Assembly: GCF_054482595.1 (NCBI RefSeq)
Contig: NZ_CM137008.1
Strand: one strand, 5' to 3'
Length of the DNA stretch: 64,000 bases
Shown one piece after another: positions 20,751-20,912 of the stretch (position 1 is its first letter; each line of letters starts with the position of its first letter). A model generated the notes under the pieces. The model saw only the letters and a list, made by a program, of their open reading frames with translations. It ran no database searches and was not told where the DNA came from. Both the position numbers and the translations under genes were made by a program.

Positions 20751-20760
20751 GGGCTGAATT

Positions 20761-20858
20761 GCCGGATGCGGCGTGAACGCCTTATCCGACCTACAAAATA
20801 GCGCAAATTTAATATATTGCACCATCCTCGCAGGCCTGATAAGCATAGCGCATCAGGT
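20761..20858. repeat. REP/BIME element between convergent kdpE and pgm
   Basis: gccggatgcggcgtgaacgccttatccgacctac ... caggcctgataagcatagcgcatcagg. Confidence 0.8.
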
Positions 20859-20868
20859 AGTCATAAGT

Positions 20869-20901
20869 AAAAAAGGGCGATCTTGCGACCGCCCTTTTTT
20901 T
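20869..20901. terminator. Bidirectional rho-independent terminator (kdpE / pgm)
   Basis: aaaaaa-gggcg-atcttgcgac-cgccc-ttttttt: A-run, stem-loop, T-run. Confidence 0.7.
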
Positions 20902-20912
20902 ATTTAATGTGT

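Follow-up and report, generated by a model that had tools for sequence, protein, structure and literature searches.

The interval described here is bounded by genes and elements that are individually familiar, and among its closest described counterparts are the paired REP elements that lie at the 3' ends of operons. REPs are recognised substrates for rearrangement, and they were reportedly described by Shyamala and colleagues in 1990 as join-points of duplications. The pair type most relevant to this locus, BIME-1, is composed of a y and a z1 element and occurs as a single copy instead of a tandem array (PMC3333891); it is defined by a long and conserved L linker, which frequently carries an IHF site (PMC3333891, summarising Bachellier et al. 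1994; Boccard and Prentki 1993). RecA-independent deletion between short direct repeats is also a known process (PMC5426353), and a pangenome study counts speF with those E. coli genes that have most frequently become pseudogenes (PMC13322260). Our literature search found no paper combining speF, kdpE and pgm, and the papers that it found on speF or potE were without the allele series set out below.

We analysed a 64,000-nt stretch of contig NZ_CM137008.1 (assembly GCF_054482595.1; hereafter the window), in which kdpE and pgm converge across 162 bp at a site where K-12 carries the speF-potE cassette. All components of the locus are of known kinds (BIME-1/RIB at operon 3' ends, a shared bidirectional terminator, presence or absence of a cassette, and deletion between short direct repeats), and the window allele is already present in the annotation of 114 RefSeq genomes. 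It is ordinary strain-to-strain variation, old and natural. The reading that we favour, and hold to be probable, is that the window spacer is the minimal member of a series of old speF-less alleles that segregate in Escherichia, and that it arose through a ybfP deletion at REP-y that followed an earlier loss of the cassette.

Anatomy of the spacer and its flanks

Both genes bordering the spacer are intact, with full-length profile matches above the curated equivalog cut-offs (Table 1), and the Pgm protein of the window is 100% identical to that of K-12. The end of kdpD overlaps the start of kdpE downstream of it; on the far side of pgm are seqA and ybfF. In the window kdpE stops with TAG (20748-20750), as opposed to TGA in the speF-bearing alleles. 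In pgm and seqA the window is closer to O157:H7 than to K-12 or B2, and the sequence that flanks the speF-less alleles is of ordinary Escherichia character. Within E. coli, kdpD and kdpE are unusually polymorphic, strains being 95.5-98% identical to each other over the kdp operon (window 12930-20748) compared with 97-99.9% for pgm/seqA.

Table 1. Features of the kdpE-pgm interval and its flanking genes, in window coordinates.
Feature	Position	Strand	Evidence
kdpD, sensor kinase	17392..20076	+	NF007793, 1836 bits; coordinates per RefSeq annotation of the identical strain XH990
kdpE, response regulator, full length, 225 aa	20073..20750	+	NCBIfam NF007820, 487 bits against a cut-off of 325, residues 1-225
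Variable junction, 9 nt, GGGCTGAAT, from the kdpE stop to the REP	20751..20759		Alignments and blastn break
REP of y type, 35 nt, TGCCGGATGCGGCGTGAACGCCTTATCCGACCTAC	20760..20794	+	3 window copies at 3 mismatches or fewer, 0 expected by chance
L-type linker of the BIME, 35 nt	20795..20829		Sequence reading
Inverted REP of z type, second BIME arm	20830..20859	-	2 window copies, 0 expected by chance
Predicted bidirectional intrinsic terminator, A6-GGGCG(10 nt)CGCCC-T7	20869..20901		Predicted fold
pgm, phosphoglucomutase	20913..22553	-	TIGR01132, 1074 bits against a cut-off of 778

A preliminary description of the locus, made from the letters of the window, had placed two REP copies and a bidirectional terminator in the 162-bp spacer, and both the REP copies and the predicted fold agree with it. 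Every speF-less Escherichia allele examined has, with substitutions, the 9-nt junction that follows kdpE, and nothing in K-12 corresponds to it. The first REP fits the y consensus and forms, with the second, an inverted pair present as a single copy and not as a tandem array. Since the same 69-nt offset from REP-y to REP-z recurs in a second BIME of the window (28181-28279), the spacer holds a standard BIME with a long linker. It resembles BIME-1 and RIB/RIP elements in its inverted REPs, and its linker and single copy would be in keeping with them; on these sequence features the pair would be classed as BIME-1 in architecture. It differs from them in its putative IHF motif, ATTTAATATATTG at 20808-20820, which has two mismatches to WATCAANNNNTTR, the core C included, compared with one mismatch in the K-12 copy, ATTCAATATATTG. 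The latter form is found in K-12 and most other alleles, and ATTTAATATATTG, the form of the window subtype, carries a C-to-T change at a core consensus position. An Rfam scan of 20300-21300 returned sub-threshold matches only, the best being to the REP-derived naRNA4 (37.5 bits against a gathering score of 59.5).

The terminator hairpin is present in both the minimum-free-energy and the centroid folds and is predicted to act bidirectionally, serving both kdpFABCDE and pgm. It is the sole segment of the spacer kept in all alleles examined, including those of O157 and B2, where it is the potE/pgm terminator. A simple terminator scan passed over this hairpin because its loop region exceeds the scanner's limit, and found only a minus-strand site inside kdpE.

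Alleles of the interval in K-12 and other E. coli

To the K-12 map the preliminary description had assigned the genes ybfP, ybfG, potE, speF and ybfK between pgm and kdpE. The annotation of NC_000913.3 bears this out, with the order pgm, ybfP, ybfG(pseudo), ybfI(pseudo), potE, speF, speFL, kdpE (b0688-b0694), in which the former ybfK is now speFL; kdpE and pgm are not directly adjacent there, being separated by ~5.7 kb. Alignment of the window with 82 kb of K-12 by blastn gave collinear matches at 97-98.5% identity. Homology breaks at window 20748 and resumes at 20759, such that K-12 715,364-721,057 (~5.69 kb) is replaced by 10 nt in the window, confirming that the speF-potE block is absent from this site. 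SpeF, PotE, YbfP and YbfG gave no tblastn match anywhere in the 64-kb window. The two strains share orthologous kdpE, pgm, terminator and BIME by the pgm terminator (87% identity over the BIME-terminator segment), and differ in that K-12 has ybfP, ybfG', ybfI', potE, speF and speFL between the BIME and kdpE, and in that K-12 kdpE ends with TGA and is followed by a terminator of its own and no REP.

The K-12 pseudogene ybfI (716,721-716,870; 5722-5871 of the locus) is a ~150-bp duplicate of the kdpE 3' end, lying after potE, a copy of the terminator and a partial REP. Its identity is 88-90% to the kdpE of E. whittamii and to all the E. coli kdpE alleles tested, and 85.5% to that of E. albertii. 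We considered ybfI as a carrier of the window-type kdpE allele, which is unsupported given its equal identity to all E. coli alleles tested; being equidistant from them, ybfI does not identify the donor. It suggests that the K-12 allele was built by an old rearrangement that placed the speF-potE block before a kdpE-ybfG-ybfP arrangement. Through ybfI, the locus is seen to have been remodelled at some time in the opposite direction as well. Elsewhere, the window lacks IS5D (K-12 687,851-689,045), has 30 bp in place of a 170-bp stretch that lies between asnB and umpH in K-12, and is rearranged relative to K-12 in the rhsC/H-repeat region, with overlapping and partial matches; these other differences from K-12 lie at window positions 46926-46930, 36569-36598 and 4832-9530.

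At least five structures occupy the kdpE-pgm interval in E. coli. The majority allele (H-A), carried by O157:H7 and B2 strains, reads kdpE(TGA)-speFL-speF-potE-terminator-pgm; it shares with the window the flanking genes and the bidirectional terminator, which there serves potE and pgm, and differs from it in carrying the speF-potE cassette and in having neither BIME nor ybfP. The K-12 allele (H-B; 1851 genomes) consists of the cassette, a terminator copy, a partial REP, ybfI, ybfG, ybfP, the BIME, the terminator and pgm. Two further alleles are free of speF-potE: H-E (for example in S1-ISR-02-A), which reads kdpE(TAG)-9 nt-[REP-y + REP-z]-ybfP-[REP-y-L-REP-z]-terminator-pgm, and H-C, the allele of the window, in which kdpE, the BIME and pgm are joined directly.

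Using a 2.5-kb query over kdpE, the spacer and pgm, which gives one joined place per genome, we found a short speF-less interval in 360 of 5426 complete E. coli genomes (~7%). This figure was rejected as the number of window-type alleles, as junction-specific probes divide it into 114 genomes with the direct junction (H-C), 48 of these being of the exact window subtype, and 246 that contain ybfP (H-E); the joined query had merged the two because pieces less than ~1.8 kb apart are joined. All three values (360, 114 and 246) are approximate, as they depend on megablast coverage thresholds. In a megablast search for speFL-speF-potE, 5038 complete E. coli genomes reached a coverage of at least 80% and 293 gave no match at all. 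From kdpE through the spacer to pgm, fourteen complete genomes match the window at 100% identity. Both the junction and the TAG stop were present in each of seven direct-junction genomes sampled across the range of identity (XH990 and six others), which differ among themselves by ~10% and a 12-bp indel in the spacer and carry different kdpE alleles. The absence is not peculiar to one lineage, as the junction recurs in 114 of the 5426 complete E. coli genomes and in two further lineages of Escherichia.

Two sporadic variants depart from these structures. E. coli MB10 (4501-5276 of the locus) has lost speF-potE independently in an IS1-associated deletion, its truncated speFL abutting IS1A, which is followed by an intact ybfG (DUF2625) and ybfP. 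E. coli 2018-05-2CC (3340-3700 of the locus) carries a tandem duplication of the kdpE 3' end and the REP pair, and its pgm-side BIME is truncated; this duplication would be further evidence that the interval is a hotspot of REP-driven rearrangement. Measured against K-12, the speF-potE alleles themselves form distinct identity classes, with 1422 genomes at 99% or above and 2526 at 90-95%. The kdpE-speFL spacer of the common O157/B2-type alleles gave no megablast alignment to K-12, and was matched over its full length in the B2 strain E2348/69.

Origin of the direct junction

The H-E allele shares with the window the TAG stop, the 9-nt junction, a REP-y after kdpE, a BIME-1 and terminator before pgm, and the lack of speF-potE; it differs in an extra 647 bp, comprising REP-z, ybfP and a second REP-y. 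Its two REP-y copies are direct repeats of 35 bp, 647 bp apart. In alignment, H-C follows the left flank of H-E (kdpE, TAG and 9 nt) through REP-y and continues as the right flank (L linker, REP-z and terminator). The REP-y of the window has two variants of the left copy of H-E and has right-copy sequence directly after it; because the left-copy variants run straight into right-copy sequence, the exchange is placed at the 3' edge of REP-y. The window spacer is 95.5% identical to the right BIME of H-E, and both are without a 12-bp segment found in K-12. As in deletions between short direct repeats, H-C equals H-E minus exactly the inter-repeat sequence, with one chimeric repeat kept; unlike such deletions, the window case is a natural allele whose event and direction are read from comparison.

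We propose that an allele of the speF-less H-E type lost 647 bp, ybfP included, between its direct REP-y copies. Either recombination between these copies or slippage during replication would have removed the segment and left a single chimeric REP-y, and REP-y 20760-20794 is the probable crossover site. The events could also have run in the reverse direction, with ybfP inserted later, flanked by a duplicated REP, and the direct junction as the older state, because a junction of the H-C type occurs in sister species; under that direction the REP duplication would require another explanation. The preliminary description had proposed that the REP marks the junction left by the missing speF-potE block. 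That proposal can be kept for the 647-bp ybfP deletion and has to be given up for the loss of speF-potE, since an equivalent BIME adjoins the pgm terminator in K-12; on this comparison, the REP beside kdpE would be the join-point of the ybfP deletion and not the scar of a speF-potE breakpoint.

The direct junction extends beyond typical E. coli. Escherichia whittamii and the divergent SCPM-O-B-8794 (labelled E. coli) have the order kdpE-TAG-~10 nt-BIME-terminator-pgm, with a spacer 83% identical to that of the window and kdp genes at 90-94.5%. The occurrence of an H-C-type junction in both at this spacer identity indicates that the allele is old.

To place the cassette in the wider family, we scanned with KdpE one genome per species and obtained at least 80 loci, in a list that does not include E. 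fergusonii, E. marmotae, E. ruysiae or Salmonella. Among the matches listed, kdpE and pgm are directly adjacent in 35 of 80 loci, and speF lies next to kdpE in 29 of 80. In Pantoea, Serratia and Dickeya, at those of the listed loci where both genes are visible, the two are adjacent or at most ~1.2 kb apart with no speF; the listed loci of Serratia, Pectobacterium and Yersinia have gaps of up to ~2.4 kb, again without speF. As all five of these genera are without speF at this site, direct convergence is the ancestral Enterobacterales arrangement. The cassette occupies the identical site in E. albertii, Citrobacter, Enterobacter, Kluyvera, Lelliottia, Atlantibacter and others among the matches listed. 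Its distribution within Enterobacteriaceae is patchy: the listed Citrobacter loci include six with the cassette, five adjacent without it and one unresolved, those of Enterobacter include seven with it and three directly adjacent without it, and Phytobacter has one of each. SpeF identity to E. coli falls with KdpE identity, suggesting vertical descent with repeated loss, and the speF-potE cassette probably predates Escherichia.

In the kdpE-pgm spacer of Klebsiella indica TOUT106 (~9683-9751 of the locus), the last 23 codons of potE are kept at 100% protein identity to E. coli PotE, and this retention proves the loss of speF-potE in that species. The speF-less spacers of Escherichia gave no remnant of speFL, speF or potE by tblastn (word size 2) or blastn-short; the motif CTGAA, common to the 9-nt junction and the potE 3' end, was set aside as too short to count. 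The preliminary description had left it at either "never had" or "lost". Because no remnants are present, they do not settle the choice, and it is from the phylogenetic distribution only that we infer ancient loss in Escherichia to be more likely than primary absence. The kdpE-pgm site probably lost its speFL-speF-potE cassette long ago, before E. coli and E. whittamii split; E. coli would since have kept both states, with homologous recombination in the conserved flanks, kdp and pgm, reshuffling them.

If instead the absence were primary, the allele would descend unbroken from the ancestral Enterobacterales convergence of kdpE and pgm, and the cassette would have entered other Escherichia alleles by recombination. 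The 35 directly adjacent loci among the matches listed, Pantoea and Dickeya included, are consistent with such a history, as are the speF-less gaps of up to ~2.4 kb listed for Serratia, Pectobacterium and Yersinia and the lack of any speF/potE remnant in the Escherichia speF-less alleles; the position of ybfI after potE in K-12 likewise fits a cassette pasted before an older speF-less arrangement. We nonetheless regard primary absence as unlikely, given that the cassette sits at the identical site in E. albertii and in the other genera named above, with SpeF identity tracking that of KdpE, that the empty allele would have to persist as a polymorphism through many genus-level splits, and that the speF-less alleles sit between flanks of ordinary Escherichia sequence. 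Cassette presence and absence might also be a long-lived, possibly selected polymorphism across Escherichia, in which flank recombination moves the cassette and REPs reduce the alleles stepwise, speF-less alleles shrinking by way of REPs from ybfG-ybfP to ybfP to nothing; we consider this distinctly unlikely.

Very improbable, in our estimate, is the "lost" alternative of the preliminary description when taken as a recent, lineage-private, REP-mediated deletion of a K-12-like 5.7-kb block extending from ybfP to speFL. The block is indeed absent, a REP abuts the kdpE stop codon, and REPs are known to take part in rearrangements, all of which such a deletion would explain. However, 114 complete genomes share the identical junction, with subtypes that diverge by ~10% in the spacer; two further Escherichia lineages have it too, their spacers being 83% identical to that of the window; and the 9-nt junction, absent from K-12, is present in the speF-less allele that retains ybfP (H-E). 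A direct REP-to-REP deletion was also rejected as a route from K-12- or O157-type alleles, from which it is impossible because they have no REP on the kdpE side to act as recombination partner. An assembly artefact, by which collapse across the REPs removed real sequence, is scarcely credible: REPs are repeated, but 35-bp copies do not collapse long-read or finished assemblies, and 14 independent complete genomes are identical to the window over kdpE, the spacer and pgm, with 100 more sharing the junction.

Ornithine decarboxylase in strains with the window allele

The preliminary description had proposed a search for speF elsewhere in the genome, and we carried this out in the 14 public complete genomes that are identical to the window at the locus. 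The probe was a chimera of 2 kb of window kdpDE and a 70-nt speF stretch that is invariant among the K-12, O157 and B2 alleles. It found one place in each of the 14 genomes and two places in the O157:H7 controls, and the 70-nt speF portion had no genome-wide match in any of the 14. The strain is therefore most likely without the inducible ornithine decarboxylase and its antiporter. Among these genomes is that of strain Santai (ST1011), a member of the group that contains the O157:H7 lineage (PMC5039186), and the closeness of the window pgm and seqA to O157:H7 fits this grouping.

The practical value of these observations is modest, and none of the elements or mechanisms involved is of a new kind. 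In annotating genomes or comparing pangenomes, the kdpE-pgm interval can be treated as a minor hotspot of structural variation, in which at least five alleles occur. E. coli strains have long been known to vary in the ornithine decarboxylase test. Judging from their gene content, strains with the window allele are expected to have neither the ornithine decarboxylase induced at low pH nor the putrescine-ornithine antiporter, and the allele may contribute to the variable outcome of that test, as well as to differences between strains in exporting putrescine and in tolerating mild acid.
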